Assembly (NCBI GenBank): GCA_963759275.1
Contig: CAVWYZ010000014.1
Location: forward strand, 865,201-929,200
DNA length: 64,000 nt
Reading direction: 5' to 3'
From: Candidatus Acidiferrales bacterium
GTDB lineage: Bacteria > Acidobacteriota > Terriglobia > Acidiferrales > UBA7541
This document shows positions 27,926 through 41,312 of this stretch, piece by piece. Both the position numbers and the translations under genes were made by a program. Position 1 is the first letter of the stretch, and every line of letters begins with the position of its first letter. The notes beneath the pieces are model-generated. The model saw only the letters and a program-made list of their open reading frames with translations, did not search any database and was not told the DNA's origin.

Positions 27926-28282
27926 ATGCCATTCAACTTCATGACCCTATCAAGAGTGGATTTGCCGGTAAGCCAAACTGAAGGCCGGAAGATTCTGGAA
28001 CGCGATCAATTCTGCTGCAGGTACTGCGGATTGGACGGCAAGACCAGCTTTGAAAATGCGCTGGTCATGTCCGTTGATTTCGTTGTGCCAAGGGCTCGCA
28101 AGGGAAAGAAAGATCCTGCCAACTTGGTGGCGTGCTGCCGTCCGTGCAACATCATCAAGGGCAAGCGGGTCTACAAGAGCTTCGAGGATGCCAAGAAATA
28201 TGTGCTCGCGCGGCGCGAAGAGATTCGCAAGTCTTGGGAGGCCGAGCACTCTCAGCCGATGGCGAAGGCGGCTTCCGCTTAA
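27926..28282 (+). CDS. Small HNH-fold protein (CxxC...CxxC zinc sites), catalytic His position occupied by Phe
   Basis: RDQFCCRYCG...SVDFVVPRARKGK...NLVACCRPCN..KG. Confidence 0.75.
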   Translation: MPFNFMTLSRVDLPVSQTEGRKILERDQFCCRYCGLDGKTSFENALVMSVDFVVPRARKGKKDPANLVACCRPCNIIKGKRVYKSFEDAKKYVLARREEIRKSWEAEHSQPMAKAASA

Positions 28283-29316: not shown

Positions 29317-29546
29317 AGGTGAAGAACCCATTCCCTACGGACCGATATTCCCAGTTCCAACCCTCCAGCTAGGAGCAATTGGTACCGGGAGTTCCGTATC
29401 TTGACTTTCCCTTCAATGAGAAACAAGATTCGCAAACCTCTGGAGGTACCCGCGCCCTCTGGGAAGTGGAGCAGGGTATGTCCGTCATCCGCAGAATTGC
29501 TCCAAGTGTATTCGTAGTTTTGCATCTGCAGTGACAGGAGCCCGCC

Positions 29547-29780
29547 ATGACCAGTCATCTACAGCCAAGTACAACGGAATGGAAAGTAGAAGGAATAGGG
29601 TCGGCAGCGAAGATCATAGCTACCTGCCAGCTGTGTCACACGTCACGGACGTTTCAGGGTGTACCCGTTAAGGTCGTTAAACAATTATTGAAACACAATC
29701 TCTGCGATGGACTTGTTGAATCTATCCCGACTGAGATCCGAAACTTGTATTGGGACCGTACGGTTGTTTCACAGTGTTGA
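29547..29780 (+). CDS. Small hypothetical protein with a CxxC motif
   Basis: AGGAG RBS 7 nt before ATG; CQLCH motif. Confidence 0.4.
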   Translation: MTSHLQPSTTEWKVEGIGSAAKIIATCQLCHTSRTFQGVPVKVVKQLLKHNLCDGLVESIPTEIRNLYWDRTVVSQC

Positions 29781-29918: not shown

Positions 29919-30713
29919 TTGAGCGAACGACTTAAGGGAAAAGTCGTTATCGTCACGGGCGCGGCACAGGGCCTCGGGTTCGGCTGTGCAAGCCTGATCG
30001 CATTTGAAGGTGCAACGGTAGTGCTGGGGGATTTGCAGGTGGAGCGAGGGAAGCTCGCCGCCGCGAAGATTCTAGCGGCCGGGGGCAAAGCGCAATTTTG
30101 CGAAGCAGACGTAAAGAGTGAAAAAGCATGTTCCTTGCTCGTAGAGAAAACGGTGAAAACTTTTGGAAAGCTCGATGGCCTGGTGAACAACACCGGTTGG
30201 TTTCCACGCGCCACCCTAGAGGCAACGACCACTGAACTTTGGGACGAGGTTATAAACGTCAACCTTCGTGGATCGTTCTATTGCTGCAAATATGCCATGC
30301 CTGTGATGCGAAAAGGTGGGGGCGGAAGCATCATAAATATGGGATCGATCTGTGGGATCCAGGGCTTGCCAAACCTTGTGGCGTATGGCGCAGCCAAAGG
30401 TGGGCTGCTGTCGCTGACTCGCACCCTGGCCGGTGCACTCGCCGAGCATCGAATCCGAGTGAATTACGTTATTCCCGGCTGGGTACTGACCGAGGGAGAA
30501 CTGGCACTACACGAGGCGCAAGGCCGAACGGAAGAAGCTCTAAGAGAGGAAGGAAAAAAGCTGGCGTTGGGGCGCCAACAGACACCGCTCGATACGGCCT
30601 TTGCCGTTGTGTATTTGTTAAGCGACGAAAGCTCGCAGGTTACCGGGTCTGCTTTGCACGTTGATGCCGGAGCTTCCAGTTTGCCCATCGCACCCGGCAC
30701 ATATCCGGGATAG
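29919..30713 (+). CDS. Short-chain dehydrogenase/reductase (SDR)
   Basis: TGAAQGLG, LDGLVNNTG, NMGS, YGAAK and VNYVIPG motifs. Confidence 0.92.
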   Translation: MSERLKGKVVIVTGAAQGLGFGCASLIAFEGATVVLGDLQVERGKLAAAKILAAGGKAQFCEADVKSEKACSLLVEKTVKTFGKLDGLVNNTGWFPRATLEATTTELWDEVINVNLRGSFYCCKYAMPVMRKGGGGSIINMGSICGIQGLPNLVAYGAAKGGLLSLTRTLAGALAEHRIRVNYVIPGWVLTEGELALHEAQGRTEEALREEGKKLALGRQQTPLDTAFAVVYLLSDESSQVTGSALHVDAGASSLPIAPGTYPG

Positions 30714-30899: not shown

Positions 30900-31620
30900 G
30901 CGGGATCAGGCAAAGTTCGGGCTGGCTCATTTGACCGGGACCGTGCAAACGCGTGGTGACGCAGAAGTGGTCAACCTCAAGTTGAACGCTCCAGGTATGC
31001 CCATCGAAGAACTGGAGGCGATGTTGCCAGCACTGGGCATCGCGCTTCCCAGCGGGTCACAACTGAAGGGCGGCACGCTCTCACTGAAGCTCGATGTGGC
31101 CGGGCCTGTAGATAAACTCGTCATCACAGGTCCGGTGCAACTATCCGGCAGCAGCCTCGCCGGCTTCAACCTGGGAGAAAAAATGGGTGCAATGGCGGCT
31201 TTTGCAGGTAAGGCAGCGTCCAAGCCCGACACAGAGATCAAAAATTTCAGCCTCAATGCTCGCGTCGCACCGGAAGGTACAAAAGCGGACAACATCAACC
31301 TCGATGTACCTGCCATCGGCGTGATCACTGGAGCCGGCACTGTAAGCTCAGCGGGAGCTCTTGATTACAAGATGCTGGCGAACCTGAGCGGCGGAGCCGT
31401 AGGTGGCGTGACAAAGGTGGCAACCGCAGGCAGCGGCAAAGGTGGAGTTCCTTTCGCTATAACTGGCACAACCTCGGACCCGAAATTTGTTCCTGATGTT
31501 GGAGGAGTCGTGGGAGGTGTGGCCACCGGCGCAGTCAAAGAGGCTGCTAAAGCCCCGGGAACCGCCGTATCAGCGCCGACCAAGGCAGTCGGTGGCCTGG
31601 TCAGCAAGAAAAGCAATTAG
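30900..31620 (+). pseudogene. 5'-truncated AsmA-family gene (C-terminal ~230 aa only)
   Basis: AHLTGTVQTRG..VNLKL....MP..EL.AMLPALG..LPSGSQLKGG is typical of the AsmA C-terminus; no N-terminal domain or good start upstream. Confidence 0.6.
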
Positions 31621-32047
31621 TACAATTCACCGGGCATTCGCAGACAAGGCATTATCACGCTGCTCAGCAGTCTGACTATCCAGAGAATCGACGTCCAGAC
31701 ATTTGCCCTCAGACCATGTTTGTGGGCCAACCGCGCCGCCGGTCTCGTGCTGCTCGTCTGGCGTCCCAGTACCGGGAAGGGAAGCCGGTACCAAGTTCCC
31801 AAGAATCGCACGCGCGTGCCATCTACGAATTCATCGGTTGGTACTGTTCCGAGCCGCGCTTGGGCTTCAACAGTAGTGTTGTCCTTCGACATCGATTCTT
31901 TCTCGAACAGAAGAACTCCGCGCCTTTGACAATAAACGCAACTTGGGACTGGAAGACGCCTGACAGAGCATCTACGTCTCCGAACCGGACCCCGGGACCG
32001 TCTCGGTGAATTCGCGCCAAACGCAGAGCGAGGACGAAGAAATCTAG

Positions 32048-32344
32048 TCACACCAACTCAATCATCACCCTGCGTCCGACCATCGCCGCCGCACGTTGAA
32101 GGCTAGAAAGCGTGATGTCATTTTTCGGATTGAGGAGCCGGTCAACCTGGGTACGGCTCGTCTTGAGCAGTGTGGCCATCTTGTTTTTGGATATCTTCTG
32201 CTTCCTCATGGCTTCGTCGAGCTGCCACGCGACCACCTCCTTGATTGCTTGCGCTTGCGATTCCTCAAAGATGCCCTCTTCCTTCAGGAAGTCATCAATG
32301 CTCGAACCCATGTATTTCTTGCGATTCTTGTGCTTTTTGCTCAT
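32048..32344 (-). CDS. XRE/HTH antitoxin (HigA-like)
   Basis: GSSIDDFLKEEGI.EE..A.AIK.V.AWQL..AM....ISK..MA..LKTSR.QVDRLL.P...TL.SL.RAA. Confidence 0.85.
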   Translation of the reverse strand: MSKKHKNRKKYMGSSIDDFLKEEGIFEESQAQAIKEVVAWQLDEAMRKQKISKNKMATLLKTSRTQVDRLLNPKNDITLSSLQRAAAMVGRRVMIELV

Positions 32345-32703
32345 CCTCGTAACTCCTTCCGGCGCTTCCGCGCCAAGGCCAAATCATCATCCAGCGTCGT
32401 ACGTGTTTTCTTGATAAACCCGTGCAGTGCGACAAGGTGCTCCTCGTGAAGGCAGCGCAGCACACGTGATGTCCGTTTCGTGGGGAGGTCCGTCCGGACT
32501 TCCCACAAACCGTTCCCCATCGGCCGGCAGAGCGGCATCCCGACGGGCCACCTCCATTGCGCACGCAAGAGGTCTTTCCCTATGGCGTGGCGCTCGATTT
32601 CAGGCAACCCTTTCAACCACTCTCGCACGGGCTCAGTTCCCGATTGCAGCCGGCAAAAAATCAGTGGGATCTTTCGCGGCCGCTGCTCTTCTTCTGCCAT
32701 CAT
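32341..32703 (-). CDS. RelE/ParE-family (Gp49/DUF891-like) toxin
   Basis: SGTEPVREWLK.L...ER..IG.DL..Q..WP.GMPLCR.MG.GLWEVR..L..LHGFIKKT; ATGA coupling to the antitoxin. Confidence 0.85.
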   Translation of the reverse strand: MMAEEEQRPRKIPLIFCRLQSGTEPVREWLKGLPEIERHAIGKDLLRAQWRWPVGMPLCRPMGNGLWEVRTDLPTKRTSRVLRCLHEEHLVALHGFIKKTRTTLDDDLALARKRRKELRG

Positions 32704-32999
32704 GCACCTTATGTAGTACAACTGTACCATAACAAGTACAACCATGCAAACATTTTGGCGAGAAAGGATTTTGTGGTCGATTGATGGTCCGACAACTGTT
32801 CTCGAGGTTATCCAAAAGGGGTTCTCTTACACGAGGGCAAGGGCTCGCAGCACGGCTACTACAATAACGTCCACACTGATAACGGCTGGGAAGGGAAGTA
32901 CACGCTCGCCAAGGCGCAGTCCCGCTGACCAATGAGAAAACTACTCTACTAAGGTTGCACTCGGTCGGGTTGTGATCTGTCCGGGATTCCCTTGCCACT

Positions 33000-33153
33000 G
33001 GCTCGCAAGGGGAAGAAAGATCCTGCCAACCTGGTGGCTTGCCGTCCGTGCAACATCATCAAGGGCAAGCGGGTCTACAAGAACTACGAGGATGCCAAAA
33101 AATACGTGCTTGCGCGGCGCGAAGAGATGCGCATGGCTTGGGAAGCCGAGCAC
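33000..33153 (+). pseudogene. 3' fragment duplicating 28093-28249 of the HNH-fold gene
   Basis: ARKGKKDPANLVAC-RPCNIIKGKRVYK..EDAKKYVLARREE.R..WEAEH; a 3-nt deletion removes one Cys. Confidence 0.8.
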
Positions 33154-33662
33154 GCAACGCTGCCGCTTCGCCATACGCGACTAGAACAACTCCAAGTGGA
33201 CGAAATCCGCCGCCACGTTGGTCCCCCCTATTGGCACGTTTCGTTCAATACGTCGCGGCACTGACCGTTAATCTCAGTTCCAGCACTTTGGTACCACTAA
33301 CAAGATGGAATCGGCCACTTTTTTGCGGGTACCGTCTCACCATGGGTTTTGCGGAATAGTCCATCTAACCTTTCCCATGCATCAGGAAGTCTGAGTGCCA
33401 GAGGTAAAGGCCGTGGACTCCTATTTCGGTTTCATAAAGAAGACAAATTAAAAGAGGAATCGATTCATGGAATCAATATATCTTGTAATCTGGCTCGCTG
33501 GCGGAGGTCTTGTGACCTACGTCAGCTTCTGTTTGCTCAAGTCTGCTGAGCGTCGCGATGATGCCGAGAATGAAAGATTGTGGCAATATTTGCTCCACCC
33601 CGGCACGCCTTGATATCGGCATAAAATCCCTAGAACCCGACGCGACGCCCGAATTCTAACGG

Positions 33663-33810
33663 CTATGGCAGCTTGGCGTACTTCGCCTTTGCACCAATCA
33701 GAATGGGGATGTCGGGGTCAGGCCACGGCATCTTTCCAGACTGTGAGAAAATCCTGATACGCCGCCTTGGCTTTTGCGGTGTCGCCCTGCATCGCATAAG
33801 CACGGGCGAG
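33663..33810 (-). pseudogene. 3' tail remnant of an acidobacterial Ser/Thr kinase-TPR gene
   Basis: LARAYAMQGDTAKAKAAYQDFLTVWKDA, a 7-nt insertion, then DPDIPILIGAKAKYAKLP*. Confidence 0.75.
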
Positions 33811-33912
33811 ACCTCACCGCGCAAGTGGTTTCCACGGAAAGTTCACACCAGTCCTCGATGGTCGGTGGACTTCTGAAATTCTGCTGCGGCGCTGCCGTCA
33901 CACTACCCTGCT

Positions 33913-34071
33913 CTACCGCTTGACCGCGTAATAGATGACGTACAGCCAACTGAGGATGCCGTGGAGAATCATCCAAAGAATGGAATGTTTGACGCTCCAA
34001 GAAATTGTGATTGCGAGCATGCTTCCGAAGCCCCAAAAACCGACGCCCGCCGACCCGCCTCTATTTTCCAT
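33913..34071 (-). CDS. 52-aa small membrane protein (absent from the ORF track)
   Basis: MENRGGSAGVGFWGFGSMLAITISWSVKHSILWMILHGILSWLYVIYYAVKR*; GGAG RBS; two hydrophobic helices. Confidence 0.7.
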   Translation of the reverse strand: MENRGGSAGVGFWGFGSMLAITISWSVKHSILWMILHGILSWLYVIYYAVKR

Positions 34072-34580
34072 GTCATCTCCGCCACGATTGCTGCTCTGAC
34101 TACCTTAGCAAGGGATATTCTACTCCGACGTACGACCTTTCACTTTGGGCCAGATTACCAAGACACGTGAAGGCCACTATTCCGGATGGTTCTACCGTGA
34201 ATTTGGCGATGCCAAGGCGGGGCGACGGCTTACTTCGTCGGTCGATAGTCGTGGCACTTGCACCCGGGGAAGTTGCAGGGACTGCGGACTGTGTCCTTTT
34301 TATTAATCGTCACTCGCCGGGCGTGGTGAATGGCTTTGCCATGGCCACAGCGGCACGGCTGCTTCGTGGGTCCTCTTGCCATCGGCAGAGTCTACCACGA
34401 CGGAAAGACACCTTAACGCAGGAGATACGGATTCGGGGGTGGTACTAACGGCGATTTGGGGTGTTAGGTAGGTTTTGGACTCCGTCAGCACCACCGTCCG
34501 TTGGCCTGAGCGTAGTCTTTAGTTTTGTGGGCTACAAGCGATTAACGCGGGCTGCCGGAAAAGTAGCTCCGTCCTTGGGG

Positions 34581-34814
34581 CTAGGTGCTGCGATTGGCGG
34601 ACGCGGGACAAAGTGAACACATGAATTCGTAGCCGATATGGTCCGACCGTCCTTGCGTGGTCGTCACCCAATGACGATTAGTCCACGGTGGGTTTAGGCG
34701 AACGTGCTGTTGATGTCCGCACTCGAGGTCAGCAACCCAGTCGAAGCGTTCATCCAAGTGGAAACCCACGATTTTTCGGAGGGAACCAGCAACTGGTGCA
34801 CGCATGGGCTTCAT
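34581..34814 (-). CDS. DUF3565-like small protein (start uncertain)
   Basis: IVGFHLD...WVADLECGH.QHVR.NPPW.NR.WV...GR...G....C..C pattern. Confidence 0.7.
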   Translation of the reverse strand: MKPMRAPVAGSLRKIVGFHLDERFDWVADLECGHQQHVRLNPPWTNRHWVTTTQGRSDHIGYEFMCSLCPASANRST

Positions 34815-34873
34815 TCTATTCCATTCCCTTTATGTTCTGCGGAAGGAGAACTTGTTCCGCTATGAGCGCGTAA

Positions 34874-35122
34874 CTACTGGAGGCGTGAATATTCAGCTAT
34901 GAATCGAACCTCCGGCGCATGGTGTCCATTCATGCCTGTCCTGAGTGTTTCTAATTCAGTCGCGGGAACAACAGACTCGCTAAACCCGCAACTCAGGCAC
35001 ACGAGCATCTCCTGACAGACATAGACCGGCGACAGTCTGAATCTTTGAATACCGGGAAAGGCGACGGCTAATTCTACTGGGAACTTCTGGAGGTTCTCCG
35101 AAGAGCAGGCTTTACAGGCCAC
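34874..35122 (-). CDS. Small Cys-motif hypothetical protein (CxxC...CxxC)
   Basis: GGAGG + GTG start; MACKACSSENLQKFPVELAVAFPG...LVCLSCGFSE..VP..EL..L. Confidence 0.65.
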   Translation of the reverse strand: MACKACSSENLQKFPVELAVAFPGIQRFRLSPVYVCQEMLVCLSCGFSESVVPATELETLRTGMNGHHAPEVRFIAEYSRLQ

Positions 35123-35382
35123 ATTTCCTCCAAGCCGAAGGTGTAGTTGTGAGGTAGGCGGCCTTGCAACTGCAGGAAGTCTAGCACAGCAAGCATTTCT
35201 GCTGTAATTCACCGGAGTTATTTTCGCGTGACACATGACAACCAAGTTGTGTAATCCGGGAGAAGGAGCGACCGTCAATCGCCATCTACGGTGATGAACG
35301 GACAAAAACCCAGTGGCCCCTTTTCGTGCTGCTTGTAGATGTCGATTTGTGAAGTTGCTCGTACGCTAGCCACGGATGTGCA

Positions 35383-37461
35383 TTAGGGTGCTTTATTCGA
35401 CGACGTTTTGGCCGCGGCGGCAGCCTGTGACAAGACATAGGCTTGAATCGCGTGCACTTGATCAGGCTTAAGCGCGTCATGGAACGAAGGCATGCCGCGT
35501 GATTCGCGAGCGCCTTCCAGCACGATGGATTCGAATTGATCTTGCGTCTCTGGAGTGGCATAGCGCAGGTCAGGAACGCTGGAGCCAGAGATTACGCCTA
35601 CTCCGTGGCAGTAGAAGCAGTAGCGCATATATAGGACATTGCCTTCGTGGATGGTGGCTGGTGCGGCATTCTTGTGAACCGCAACCGTCGGAAGCCCCTT
35701 GCGTCCGAATGGCGGAACTTCGAGGCTTGCGTTGGCACCAAGGGAAAAGGTCAGGACGCGGCCAAAGCCCCGCTTGACCGGGCCGCTGCCCGGGAGATTG
35801 ACTAGTCCGGCGGCGCCTCCCCAGCCAACCATGAGGGTCACATACTGAACTCCGTCCTGAAGATAAGTGACGGGCGGAGCCATGATGCCGGTGCCAGCGT
35901 CGAACTCCCAGAGTTTTTTCCCGTCGGTCGCGCGATAGGCGCACAGTATTCCGTCGGAGCGGCCTTGAAACACCAGGTTGCCTCCAGTCGCCAGGACTCC
36001 GCCGCTCTCGACCAATGGTAGGTCAGCACGCCACACTTCACGTTGCTCCACGGGATTCCACGCGATCAAATGGCCCGTCATGGGTGGAGCGGCCCGCAAT
36101 TTTGCCATCATGGGTCCGTCGTAGGATGCATCTTCACCGCGGTTCCAAAGCGTTGGGTTCGACTTCCAATTTCTGTCTGGAGCACTCAAGAAAGCTGAGC
36201 CTTCTCGTGCCGGTACATAAACCAGGCCTGTGGTGGGATGAAACGCCATGGGATACCAGTTATGTCCACCACCTGGCGATGGGGAAACGATGACGGCCTG
36301 CCAGCCATCGTGCGCGCTTGCCGATTCCTCTGGGCGCCCAGTTTTAGGGTCGATTCCATTGGCCCATGTGATCCCGTTTATGAACGCTTTTGCTGAGATG
36401 AACTGGCCGGTCTGGCGATCGAGCACGTAGAAAAATCCATTCTTCGACGCCTGCATAATGACCTTGTGCGTAACGCCGCCAATCGGCAAATCCGCGAGCA
36501 TCAGCGGTTGCGTGGCGTCATAGTCCCAGTTGTCTCCCGGCGTTACCTGATAGTGCCAAACCAGCTCGCCGTCGCTCGCTCGCAGCGCCAATATCGACGC
36601 CAGGTACAGATTGTCGCCCCCGCCTGGGCTACGCAGATCTCGGAACCATGAGATTCCGTTGCCCGTACCGGTGTAAACCAGATCGAGGTCGGGGTCGTAG
36701 ACTATGGAGTCCCATGGCGTGCCTCCGCCGCCTGCAACCCACCACTGTCCGTTCCAGGTTTTCGCTGCGGCTTCCAGTGCTTTGGACTCGAAGCCGCGGG
36801 CCGGATCGCCCGGCACTGTGAACGTACGCCAAATGAGTTTTCCGGTTTCCGCATCGTACGCGGAAATAAAACCCCGGACACCAAACTCTGAGCCAGCGTT
36901 CCCGATGAGAACTTTTCCTTTGGCGATTCGCGGAGCGCCAGTAATCGCATATGGTTTGGATTGGTCAACTGTGATTACATCCCACACGGGTTTACCGATC
37001 TTGGCATCCAGTGCGATCAGCCGTCCATCCAGCGTGCCGAGATAGACTTTGCCGTTGTAGAGTGCAACTCCTCGATTCACAACGTCGCAGCAAATCGTCC
37101 GGGCACGTGCACGAGGTACTTTGGGATCGAAGGTCCAGAGAATTTCGCCAGTCTTTGCCTCCAGCGCATACGCAACGCTCCACTCGCCCGTTGTGTAGAT
37201 CACCCCATTCGAGACAAGTGGTGTTGCTTCCAGCCCTCGCGTGGTGCCGAGTTCGCGATCCCACAACAGGCCGAGTTGGCCGATGTTTTGTTCGTTGATC
37301 TGGCTCAATGGGCTAAATCGTTGCTCGTCATTGGTCCTTCCGTGCATTGTCCAATCGACTCCCGCCGCGACTGCCGCTGTGGGAGAGGATTTCTTGCAAG
37401 CTCCCATGGTGAGGACCAGTGCGCCAACAAATAGCAGCGACATTTTGAGGTGCATCCTCAT
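35383..37461 (-). CDS. PQQ-dependent quinohemoprotein (type II) alcohol dehydrogenase, lipoprotein, with C-terminal cytochrome c
   Basis: Lipobox MGAC; GLEATP, vicinal CC (CCDVVNRG), GSEFGVRG, GTGNG, TPGDNWDYDATQP; heme motif CFYCH...VPDLRY. Confidence 0.92.
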   Translation of the reverse strand: MRMHLKMSLLFVGALVLTMGACKKSSPTAAVAAGVDWTMHGRTNDEQRFSPLSQINEQNIGQLGLLWDRELGTTRGLEATPLVSNGVIYTTGEWSVAYALEAKTGEILWTFDPKVPRARARTICCDVVNRGVALYNGKVYLGTLDGRLIALDAKIGKPVWDVITVDQSKPYAITGAPRIAKGKVLIGNAGSEFGVRGFISAYDAETGKLIWRTFTVPGDPARGFESKALEAAAKTWNGQWWVAGGGGTPWDSIVYDPDLDLVYTGTGNGISWFRDLRSPGGGDNLYLASILALRASDGELVWHYQVTPGDNWDYDATQPLMLADLPIGGVTHKVIMQASKNGFFYVLDRQTGQFISAKAFINGITWANGIDPKTGRPEESASAHDGWQAVIVSPSPGGGHNWYPMAFHPTTGLVYVPAREGSAFLSAPDRNWKSNPTLWNRGEDASYDGPMMAKLRAAPPMTGHLIAWNPVEQREVWRADLPLVESGGVLATGGNLVFQGRSDGILCAYRATDGKKLWEFDAGTGIMAPPVTYLQDGVQYVTLMVGWGGAAGLVNLPGSGPVKRGFGRVLTFSLGANASLEVPPFGRKGLPTVAVHKNAAPATIHEGNVLYMRYCFYCHGVGVISGSSVPDLRYATPETQDQFESIVLEGARESRGMPSFHDALKPDQVHAIQAYVLSQAAAAAKTSSNKAP

Positions 37462-37643: not shown

Positions 37644-37762
37644 GCTCAGACGGTCGAAAGCTATTAACTAGACTTCGGATAGATCCAGCTGACAGAGCGG
37701 TCCTCTAAGAAGAGGTACTGTCGGATCGACTGATTCAATGGTGTTGCATCGACCGTCTGAGC
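37644..37762. other. 119-nt element with a perfect 14-bp terminal inverted repeat and nested internal stems (candidate structured RNA or MITE)
   Basis: gctcagacggtcga at 37644-37657 pairs with tcgaccgtctgagc at 37749-37762; internal gatcc/ggatc, gacag/ctgtc and cctct-aaga-agagg stems. Confidence 0.6.
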
Positions 37763-37806
37763 GCGCACGACTAGCCAGGCGCTTGGAATGTGAGCCTGTC
37801 CTGAAG

Positions 37807-38754
37807 TCAGGTGTTTATCAGGCGGCAGGAGTCCGACTCTTCGTCGAAAGGGATATCTGGCGCTGGGGGATTGGTTTCAGCGATCGTTGTTAAGGGCCGC
37901 CCCTCCGCAGCTGGCTCGGGCGTTGGGGACTCTGGTAGAGCCGGACTTCTTGCGTTGATGAGGGGCGTGAGCCAGGGACTCTGCAGTGCGGCTAAAGCAA
38001 GCTCTTCTTCGAGGTCGTTGTAGAGCGAATCTGCCAACTCCTCTCGTGCTCTGTCCACGCAGTTTTCCCCATGCGTTCTTCGGAGTGACTCAAAGATGCA
38101 CCGTGCCGTGGTTGCACCGACCTTTGATTCGACGAGGTTTCGGGGTTTGCCGGTCTTGTAGGTCCGGAGTGCATTGCGGAACGTGACTAGCGAATCGCCT
38201 TGGCGCTCATCGAAGACTTCGGCAAGTGCCTGCACAAACTGCATTTGAAAATCGGATCGATCTTTGAGGTTCTGCTCGAGTTCCGTGAACTGTACAGTCA
38301 GTGTTTCTCTCAGCTTCTTGGCATCGGCCACATTGGAATCCCACAGTTTCTGGACTTCCTTGGCTAAAGCCCGTGCGTATTCGTTGCGCATTTGAACAGT
38401 GGCTCCGGCCGTAGCTGTTTTCGTCTGTTCGTCGATCATTTTCAGGCTGAATCTGGCGACAAGGACAAACACGCCTGTCAGGATCAGTCCCATGATTCCC
38501 AGTGTCCACATTTGCGTGTTGAGGACTTTTTGGTAGTAAGACTCGTACTGCTTCTGCGTACGCGTGATGTAGTCCTTTTCCATCACTGCGCTGCTTGCGG
38601 CTTTTTCGGCGGCATCGGCGCGCTCCTCGAGCTTCTTGAGGCGGTCCTCCTGGGTGGCGCGCGGGGCTCTTGGTGGCTGCTCAGAACAAAGAGCAGGGCT
38701 GAAAAAAGCCAGAACTGCAGCCAGAACCAGTAGGCGTTGGCGTATGGTGGTCAC
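37807..38754 (-). CDS. Hypothetical protein: signal peptide, coiled coil, one TM helix, cytoplasmic coiled coil
   Basis: Long ORF with a signal peptide and a TM segment ([19 protein letters not shown]). Confidence 0.65.
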
Positions 38755-38873
38755 GGGTCCGACTCCTGGCTGGGCCTCCCAATCTAGTTGCTGGAGGGTG
38801 TGTTGTCACCGTTTGGAGCCGGGAGCGGTGTCCGAAGGGATACCGGCCGAAAGGGCTAGGCGTTTCGGTTGGC

Positions 38874-38997
38874 GGCTGGCTGGCGCAGTGGCAGGAGATG
38901 CTGGAAGACCCGGAACAGAAGATTGCCCGGCCGCGTCAAATTTACACCGGTTCCGCGGAACGGAACCTCGTGCCGATTCGAGAAGCGTACGGCATAG
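38874..38997 (+). pseudogene. gltA: 3' tail fragment of citrate synthase
   Basis: [30 protein letters not shown], then EKRTA* after a +1 shift; this matches the conserved GltA C-terminus. Confidence 0.75.
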
Positions 38998-39029
38998 AAA
39001 TTGGCAGCAGGACGATAAGCGTGAGCGTC

Positions 39030-39086
39030 TCACTGCAGTTTCGCGTACTCCGCTTTGGCTCGTTTCAGGATGGGGATGTCGGGGTC
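39030..39086 (-). pseudogene. Second kinase-TPR 3' tail remnant
   Basis: [18 protein letters not shown], same family as 33663-33810. Confidence 0.7.
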
Positions 39087-39087
39087 A

Positions 39088-39243
39088 TCATTGAGGCAGC
39101 CCGATCCGGCGCAGCAGGTCGGCGTAGCGGAGGTCGGAGCGGAGATTGTCAATTTCCGGGTCAGTTTTGATTAAATCGACACTTTGGCCAAGGGCCGCGG
39201 CTTTCTCCAGAGCCGCGAACGCAGCATCCCTTCCGCCGAAACC
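39088..39243 (-). pseudogene. 3' tail remnant of a TolB-N/TPR-family gene
   Basis: RDAAFAALEKAA....[28 protein letters not shown], same family as the C-terminus of 41902-43821. Confidence 0.7.
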
Positions 39244-39325
39244 ATTCTGTCCGTTTCGAAGCTATTCCAGGCTCGGCCAGTTGGATGAGCCGAGCTCCTT
39301 CGGGCGCGCCACAACGGGCTTGTAT

Positions 39326-39348
39326 TGATATATATCATTGGTATATAT
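39326..39348 (+). promoter_or_regulatory. Likely vapBC autoregulatory operator
   Basis: Perfect palindrome tgatatatatca (39326-39337) plus a second gtatatat half-site just upstream of vapB. Confidence 0.55.
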
Positions 39349-39368
39349 TATGTAGCGAGGTCTGCTGA

Positions 39369-39614
39369 ATGGCTAAAATCCGGGTCGCCAAACTATTCCG
39401 TAATGGACGCAGTCAAGCTGTCCGACTGCCGCAGGAGTTTCGCTTCGAAGGTGATCGTGTGCGTATTCGGCGTATTGATCAAGGTGTTCTGCTAGAACCC
39501 CTGATCCCCGATGCTGAGAGTTGGTTTGATGTACTGGATCGATTCAATACGGAACCGTTCATGGCCAAACGTCGCAGTCAACCAGTCACACCGCGCCGCG
39601 AGATCTTCAAGTGA
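39369..39614 (+). CDS. vapB: VapB (AbrB/MazE-type) antitoxin
   Basis: AKLFRNGRSQAVRLP.EFRF.GD.V.IRR...GV.LEP. Confidence 0.9.
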   Translation: MAKIRVAKLFRNGRSQAVRLPQEFRFEGDRVRIRRIDQGVLLEPLIPDAESWFDVLDRFNTEPFMAKRRSQPVTPRREIFK

Positions 39615-40042
39615 ATTACTTGCTGGATACCAACGCGTGTATCGCGCTCATCAACGGGAAGCCACCTTCTGTCCGCGCCAAATTTCAAAAGGCGACAGAA
39701 GCGGGAGCTCAAGTCTTCGTGTCTTCCGTGACCTTGTTTGAACTTTGGTACGGTGTTGCAAAGAGTTCACGCCGAGAATTCAATCGCAAGCGCCTTGAGG
39801 CCTTTTTTGCAGGCCCCGTCGATCCGCTCTCATTCGAGGATGGGGACGCCGAAATCGCTGGTTCCATTCGAGCTGACCTGGAGGTCGTGGGAAAGCCAAT
39901 CGGCGCTTACGATCTCCTGATCGCCGCACAGGCGATGCGCAACAAGCTCACGCTGATTACCGCAAATATCTCAGAATTTGCTCGAATTGAAGATTTAGTC
40001 TGGTCAGACTGGGGGGAATCCTTGACATCCCGAGCGCGGTGA
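39611..40042 (+). CDS. vapC: VapC PIN-domain toxin
   Basis: YLLDTNACI, SSVTLFELWYG, IGAYDLLIAAQA, LITAN..EF.RI; GTGA overlap with vapB. Confidence 0.92.
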   Translation: MNYLLDTNACIALINGKPPSVRAKFQKATEAGAQVFVSSVTLFELWYGVAKSSRREFNRKRLEAFFAGPVDPLSFEDGDAEIAGSIRADLEVVGKPIGAYDLLIAAQAMRNKLTLITANISEFARIEDLVWSDWGESLTSRAR

Positions 40043-41171: not shown

Positions 41172-41203
41172 CTGTCACGGCAGAGGCCGCGGGTTCGAGT
41201 CCC
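41172..41203 (+). other. 3' half of tRNA-Asp(GTC), probable att-site scar
   Basis: CTGTCAC (anticodon loop)-GGCAG-AGGCC-GCGGG-TTCGAGT-CCC; no D-arm or 5' acceptor strand upstream. Confidence 0.7.
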
Positions 41204-41312
41204 AGTCGCAAACGCCTGACCATCAACTCCTCCGGAAATCGGAAAAGTTCCTGCTAGTACTCACTTTAGCGTGGCCGCTCTCAGGCCCGGAATTTCCTTG
41301 GCCGACTTATTT

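Follow-up and report, generated by a model that had tools for sequence, protein, structure and literature searches.

How did the 3' ends of three unrelated genes come to lie end to end within 370 bp of one bacterial genome? The question is raised by a 64,000-nt stretch of DNA, positions 865201 to 929200 of contig C14 in the genome here called G000, which we refer to as the window and in whose numbering all positions without a contig prefix are given. A sequence-only reading of the window had noticed the tail of a citrate synthase gene followed by those of two TPR-encoding genes, with vapBC next to them, and had explained the row either by repeated integration events, each of which duplicated the 3' end of its target gene, or by recombination at the conserved 3' ends of highly expanded paralogue families. 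According to our analysis, all three dead tails are present where they had been placed, gltA' on the plus strand and K' and T' on the minus strand, within the 614 bp that separate the start of a 315-aa hypothetical gene from vapB (39369). The stretch is real and inert, and consists of gene-remnant debris of a well-known kind; it is probably non-functional filler, two pseudogene fragments that illegitimate recombination joined and that now occupy the space from the 315-aa gene's leader to the vapBC promoter. Its parts and neighbors are as follows.

37807-38754, minus strand: 315-aa hypothetical gene with a signal peptide and no Pfam match.
38755-38874, minus strand: 5' leader/promoter region of the 315-aa gene, conserved among genus genomes; its outer end is junction J0.
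38873-39018, plus strand: gltA', a citrate synthase 3' fragment (about residues 442-488 plus the stop), matching the intact gltA on contig C6.
39019-39029, plus strand: 11-nt spacer, which by gapped alignment is probably leftover gltA 3' flank lacking about 9 nt; its right edge is junction J1.
39030-39086, minus strand: K', the last 18 codons and stop (TGA 39030-39032) of the wHTH/kinase-TM-TPR sensor gene family, assigned from paralogue tails.
39087, no strand: lone base after the T' stop and before the first codon of K', the ancient junction J2, which recurs in G264, G064, and G009.
39088-39243, minus strand: T', the last 51 codons and stop (TGA 39088-39090) of a Ser/Thr-kinase-TM-TPR gene, 5'-truncated at junction J3 (about 39240-39243).
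39244-39368, plus strand: vapBC upstream region, with an AT-rich palindromic stretch just 5' of vapB.
39369-39614, plus strand: vapB, of MazE/AbrB type (Pfam MazE_antitoxin PF04014, 1.9e-8).
39611-40042, plus strand: vapC, with a PIN domain (PF01850, 2e-18) and a 4-nt overlap with vapB.

The adjacency of vapBC to the tails is supported by these Pfam matches, and vapB and vapC form a predicted pair in which an AbrB/MazE-type antitoxin gene overlaps a PIN-domain toxin gene, as in VapBC type II toxin-antitoxin (TA) modules. This putative module, whose coding region is 76% identical to one on contig C10 of G012, is a neighbor of the tail mosaic and no part of it; a homologue of its upstream region (39244-39368) was not found in 260 genus genomes. 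Two ORFs (38636-39094 and 38898-39170) run across the stretch and are made up of tail fragments. Scans of the window for tRNAs (ARAGORN) and Rfam families gave nothing at threshold or gathering score.

On the other side, the 315-aa gene with its leader (37798-38894) was detected in at least 12 species-level genomes (loci L002 to L004, L012, L016 to L019, L021, and L022), and one of its copies adjoins an IS110-type transposase. It looks like a repeatedly transferred or relocated single-gene unit; we considered a sharply bounded mobile cassette and rejected it, since the length of the left-end homology varies by genome. Between it and the PQQ-ADH gene lies a stretch of about 80 nt (within 37644-37769) which has matches in G000 (C18:303027, C18:504093, C1:8003, C12:227940, and others) and in many relatives (79 to 96% identity), often about 150 nt or less from contig starts, which suggests a small repeated element. 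The synteny around the 315-aa gene is not conserved in relatives, its neighbors differing in every genome. The comparison with empty sites that had been proposed as a check was therefore left with none to compare, the gene (84 to 94% identical) always standing beside unrelated DNA.

The tail next to the leader, gltA' (38873-39020), matches G000:C6:16504-16650 at 137 of 148 positions (92.6%), this being the 3' end of an intact 488-codon frame, and has 79% identity with another citrate synthase gene, on contig C12. A citrate synthase C-terminus had been read here as such, and the identity of the fragment stands, but not its intactness: a 1-nt insertion near 38978 shifts the frame, and a CAG>TAG change creates an in-frame TAG at 38995-38997, with the terminal stop TAA at 39016-39018. 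The best explanation is a decayed partial copy of G000's own gltA 3' end. Its 7% divergence from the resident gene means that the debris has persisted for long without deletion, which we count as a point against decay. These differences also bear on the suspicion of an assembly artefact, that is, a chimeric join of gltA and kinase reads. Short fragments of repeated families are indeed spots where assemblers can err, but 10 substitutions and an indel set gltA' apart from gltA, which means that gltA reads cannot have produced it, and unique sequence lies on both sides within a 1.04-Mb contig; the junction between T' and K', moreover, recurs in the assemblies of three other species (see below). 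Of all the explanations weighed here, we give the artefact the least credence.

A rival reading makes each tail the att scar of an integrase-carrying element, the elements having landed one after another, with vapBC as surviving cargo. The intact gltA is on another contig, where the downstream DNA has no resemblance to the window, and no intact partner gene closes off an island on its far side. The gltA tail is no recurrent orphan either: a match was obtained in 238 of 260 genomes, and among the best 150 matches listed nearly all lie in full-length frames of 440 to 540 aa. Of four short frames that were fetched, contig ends truncate two, a third is nearly a full gene and reaches a contig end, and the fourth is an inverted tail; the gltA tail as a recurrent landing site was accordingly rejected. 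The inverted tail belongs to G243 (L052, G243:C58:31800-34600), in which 240 bp separate the gltA body (residues 105-403) from a tail (residues 423-488) encoded on the other strand, through either an inversion across the gltA 3' end or an assembly error; the boundary of this tail is other than that of gltA'.

At J0 (38872/3), at least 12 genus genomes share the leader of the 315-aa gene at 84 to 94% identity, and in five of them the homology continues about 20 nt past 38874 (...GATTGGCGATGGCGTCGAGTGTTCTCA) before the flanks diverge; the window copy lacks these roughly 20 nt and passes directly into gltA' through a CG overlap, a microhomology of 2 nt. An overlap of only 2 nt also speaks against site-specific integration. 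At J1 (39029/30), BLAST homology extends 2 nt past the C6 stop, and a gapped alignment suggests that the gltA 3' flank, minus 9 nt, goes on for about 12 nt as far as 39029, next to the stop of K'. In this alignment, GCG-GAGCGTCT of C6 is set against GCGTGAGCGTCT of the window with 8/9 matches, a score equalled by 188 of 5,000 shuffles, so that it is no more than suggestive of 39019-39029 being leftover gltA 3' flank. The earlier claim that each piece runs exactly to its stop codon thus applies to K' and T' and probably not to gltA', for which some flank is indicated. The exact junction GTCGGGGTCATCATTGAGGCAGCC has no match in the species-representative genome collection.

K' is identical at 47 of 53 nt to the tail of an intact gene ending at C14:966445 and 84% identical to that of the gene ending at C14:1007956. 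Both are wHTH-TM-TPR genes, located 62 and 104 kb away, and they are the only intact K genes in G000. K' has neither an upstream body nor a start codon, and its frame is open for only 46 codons. In total, G000 holds five copies of the K tail, the two intact genes and three orphans, the other two orphans being the following.

33663-33801, minus strand: orphan K tail #2, of which about 46 codons are clear and about 72 with a weaker extension, frameshifted (AYAMQGDTAKAKAAYQDFLTVWKDA / DPDIPILIGAKAKYAKLP, then a stop).
C18:773786-773881, in G000: orphan K tail #3, with an in-frame stop.

These two are degenerate (...ILIGAKAKYAKLP and ...AKAKYAKRK). The notion that the tails come from highly expanded families therefore fits the N-terminal kinase domain, with at least 43 paralogue matches in G000, and does not fit the K tail with its five copies. 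As to intact donors in G000, they exist for gltA (on C6) and for K (two genes), and there is none for T: the best full-length match to the T orthologue of G264 is 45% identical. The absence of a T orthologue from G000 is a further argument against serial integration.

Stranded K tails are common in the genus. Among the 150 best matches to the 18-residue K tail (121 genomes), 30 lie in open frames shorter than 150 aa, versus 0 of the 150 best matches to the internal K motif (ADFTNKTGD...). When 20 short-frame loci were fetched, six proved to be full-length genes with frameshifts and 14 true orphans of 16 to 92 codons. The lengths of the true orphan tails are 16, 18, 18, 18, 21, 27, 31, 33, 35, 35, 63, 66, 70, 73, 76, and 92 codons, a spread without the constant crossover point that an integrase would leave. 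Truncated K-family genes that keep the 5' part exist as well, as internal-motif frames of 300 to 700 aa; both 5' and 3' wrecks arise in the K family, and the 5' kind simply remains an ORF.

Several of the orphans abut the stop of another kinase gene. In at least four apparently independent lineages, a K remnant starts 0 to 50 nt from the stop of a different sensor-kinase gene: besides the window's own lineage, T-type genes carry one in G266/G249 and in G234/G226 (where the T frame runs into K'), and beta-propeller kinases carry one behind the stop in G000:C18 and in G204. G266, G249, G226, and G234 have it at an orthologous locus, with one and the same downstream gene. Some genomes have two K tails within one locus (L029 and L034), which is among the observations that would suit serial integration.

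T' is 77 to 79% identical at the nucleotide level to the 3' ends of intact 797- to 812-aa genes in G264, G247, G206, and G266, with homology reaching about 39239-39243; its frame is open for 57 codons and has no start codon, and the closest T paralogue tails in G000 share only 40 to 43% amino acid identity. When a 606-bp query was run against the 260 genus genomes, two matches, in G264 and G064, covered both K' and T' (77% over 206 nt). In G264, an intact 797-aa Ser/Thr kinase-TM-TPR gene (ending in DLLRRMGLPK) is followed, 4 nt after its stop and in another frame, by a 16-codon K remnant. The junction reads TAA CAAT GACATC in G264 and TAA TGACATCC- in G064, with small indels between the copies. 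G064 retains only the last 52 T codons plus K', 98% identical to G264 over 269 bp, in a place outside the native T locus where both flanks are unrelated to the G264 locus. In G009, the T stop is lost and the frame continues into about 20 codons of K remnant. The T orthologues of G206, G247, G266, and G105 have other DNA past the stop and no K'.

Since the T'/K' junction is found behind an intact gene in G264 and as variants in G064 and G009, T' and K' are one old unit. The comparison shows the T/K' junction to be common to four genomes and T' plus K' to be a single inherited fragment, and the junction had formed before the copies in G000 and G264 diverged by roughly 23% of their nucleotides. 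The view of three separate events is not supported by this result, since two of the three tails belong to one inherited fragment. Serial integration is also contradicted by the G264 junction, which stands behind an intact gene with no element in between, and by the unrelated flanks of the G064 and G000 copies. One detail favors it: T' starts at nearly the same codon in both genomes, the breakpoint at J3 lying within about 2 codons of the independent one in G064 (L044, G064:C12, about 3668). Plain random decay does not predict this near-equality, and a breakpoint hotspot could be its cause. Shared ancestry of the G000 and G064 flanks upstream of T' was rejected, given that they have no homology and that their best local alignment score of 19 is within the shuffle range (mean 16.6, maximum 29).

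About 55 nt 3' of the K' stop, both G264 and G064 (L020/L044) carry a hairpin element of about 70 nt (CTTACCGGACAAGTG...CACATGTCCGGTAAG), which a 20-kb span of G264 contains three times or more (L048 17133-17201, 17733-17804, and 19845-19901) and which looks like a REP/MITE-type repeat.

Another rival reading gives the stretch, or the K tail alone, a function, as a C-terminal extension recoded by frameshifting, as a small ORF, or as a conserved DNA or RNA element behind sensor genes. The sense-codon differences between K' of G000 and G264 fall in seven codons, in six of which only the third position differs; the last 18 codons of the G266 and G249 remnants are 92% identical beside an upstream part that is scrambled by indels; and K' is in the +1 frame relative to the upstream frame in both G000 and G264 (as in G249). 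Yet the offset is +2 in G266 and G234, a 1-nt deletion has hit the C-run of K' in both G064 and G009, and two of the three differences between the G234 and G226 copies are non-synonymous. The other orphan K tails of G000 are degenerate, as described above, the DNA 3' of the K stop is unrelated among loci, no Rfam family reaches its gathering score within the window, and the T orthologues of G206, G247, G266, and G105 do without K'. The inconsistent offsets and the indels within K' exclude a programmed frameshift or recoded extension, and because of the deletions and the varying offset, we regard K' as decaying and untranslated. The substitution patterns are mixed across a few pairs with small numbers, most differences of the G000/G264 and G266/G249 pairs being at third codon positions; gene conversion by intact paralogues is another possible source of these patterns and might keep stranded tails coding-like. 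A function of any of these kinds seems to us very improbable.

The order of events and the microhomology-level illegitimate joining at the junctions are inferred from these comparisons, as follows. One fragment would be a partial copy of the gltA 3' end, now decayed, to which a few bases of 3' flank are probably attached. The other would be the 3' end of the kinase-TPR gene T, already bearing a stranded K remnant behind its stop. The T/K' junction may have arisen when most of a K-type gene gave way to the sensor half of a T-type gene, complete with stop codon, with the left crossover in the shared N-terminal domain and an illegitimate join on the right, or else when a K gene located just 3' of T was deleted save for its tail. 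The junction would then have been inherited, still attached to intact T in a related species, and G000 would later have lost the T gene apart from its last 51 codons. The three tails agree with what is expected of pseudogenes, having homology to functional genes, with lesions in gltA' and with neither start nor gene body in K' and T'. Two junctions lie within 0 to 1 nt of a stop codon, namely, T stop/K' and K' stop/gltA flank; inheritance from a functional gene accounts for the first, and the second remains a coincidence.

The surroundings bear further on whether integrative elements were involved. No integrase, resolvase, or transposase domain was found by Pfam in 20 ORFs of the window between 26 and 51 kb, a scan that covers the surroundings out to about 12 kb from the stretch and includes small or degraded ORFs non-exhaustively. 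There is, about 2 kb from the stretch and directly 3' of the stop of a 375-aa ORF, the following feature, at which ARAGORN calls no tRNA.

41172-41208, plus strand: tRNA-Asp fragment spanning the anticodon loop to the T arm (positions 33-68), 34/37 identical to C18:884284-884360.

This fragment is possibly a relic att site, the only classical att-like relic nearby, and it implies that integrative elements have passed through the region, which tells against the decay reading. Likewise in line with integration are the facts that every piece is a 3' end and that two TA modules of the window adjoin orphan K tails: vapBC adjoins K' and T', and a higBA-like pair (Gp49/HTH matches, 32048-32745) lies 1 kb from the orphan at 33663-33801. 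Set against scanned ORFs that include no recombinase, the missing partner genes, the variable breakpoints, and the non-recurrent gltA tail, these points do not rescue the proposal that the tails are att-like integration scars, which is not supported and which we consider largely refuted already; we would put little weight on it.

The region itself is a recombination-scrambled accessory zone. From 27 to 48 kb the window is a patchwork of segments of 43 to 394 bp that are 76 to 98% identical to sequences elsewhere, mostly at C14:934-1024 kb. At C14:969669-970095, a copy of an SDR locus has lost the gene body, so that the upstream region runs straight into the final 224 nt of the gene (compare 29523-29736 and 30490-30713 of the window); this SDR relic is another tail relic, 3 kb from an intact K gene. 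A second junkyard zone, the 3.7 kb of 31620-35383, has no ORF of at least 150 aa and contains the Gp49/HTH (higBA-like) pair, an HNH-like fragment, an orphan K tail, and duplicated patches (e.g., 32993-33153 versus 28086-28249, 90% identical).

A census of G000, in which intergenic DNA was compared with the proteins of the longest ORFs, so that its counts are approximate, gave 29 intergenic fragments reaching the C-terminus of the parent protein and 19 reaching its N-terminus (at least 60% identity), with symmetric histograms of starts and ends; the census missed the tail stretch itself, which was masked under a spurious 152-aa ORF. No genome-wide 3'-specific process operates in G000, where 5' and 3' gene ends are kept about equally. 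Fragments placed without regard to stop codons had been named beforehand as the sign of plain deletion decay, and this crude scan roughly finds that placement genome-wide.

The stretch has likenesses to several known systems. Like the gene remnants of bacterial accessory regions, it has homology to functional genes, no starts, a frameshift, and a premature stop, and it lies in a region without conserved synteny, with many short duplicated patches and one junction with a 2-nt overlap. What differs is that three tails fall within 370 bp, that two junctions are within a base of a stop, and that the T stop/K' junction is old, cross-species, and formed behind a gene that stayed functional. With att scars it shares the restriction to 3' ends, the partial tRNA-Asp copy 2 kb off, and the TA modules alongside, which are common island cargo; it differs in having no recombinase in the scanned ORFs, no intact partner, and no constant crossover, in that gltA is not recurrently targeted, and in that the key junction exists without an inserted element. 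A loose likeness connects it to the orphan C-terminal modules of Rhs and CdiA, which likewise combine a conserved N-terminal part with swappable C-terminal parts in mosaic evolution and leave a stranded C-terminal piece directly behind the stop of the current gene. There, what is left behind is a variable toxin tip with an immunity gene; here, it is the extreme, conserved end of the gene that was replaced, and the K tails are short (16 to 92 codons) and decaying, with no sign of reuse found.

The proposal that conserved paralogue 3' ends serve as recombination sites fares better than that of integration scars; it is possible and unproven, with some support from the excess of short frames at the K tail over the internal motif (30/150 versus 0/150), from the four or more lineages, and from the mosaicism of T. 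The T orthologues of G264 (L043) and G206 (L046) are 90.6% identical in residues 331-797 and 70.4% in residues 1-300, and the kinase domain of G264 shares 81.5% identity with its counterpart in a beta-propeller-type kinase of G206. Half-gene recombination thus demonstrably occurs in the sensor-kinase family, as judged from these alignments, and the two halves of T have discordant histories. A more specific proposal, which we regard as unlikely, is that the K tail (the last 16 to 35 codons) is a preferred right-hand breakpoint when paralogous kinases swap their sensor halves. The left crossover of such a module exchange would fall inside the conserved kinase domain, and its right end would come immediately after the stop of the incoming gene.

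Paralogue expansion of Ser/Thr kinases and winged-helix regulators has been described in Acidobacteria (Challacombe et al. 2011, PMC3174227), and the same protein families are concerned, in a large soil acidobacterial genome shaped by acquisition and duplication. A term search of the paper gave no occurrence of "pseudogene", and in the passages considered here neither stranded tails nor half-gene mosaicism is mentioned. A literature search found no paper on stranded kinase tails.

The striking row of three tails is explained by ordinary gene decay and the inheritance of an older junction and matters little in itself; the stretch should be annotated neither as an integration hotspot nor as genes. 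The sensor-kinase family of the genus, with about one-fifth of its best-scoring K tail copies stranded, is in rapid flux, which makes it suitable for work on the exchange of modules between multi-domain sensors. If the exchange proposed above is true, stranded K tails would be the footprints of a recurrent module exchange that diversifies the acidobacterial sensor-kinase repertoire.
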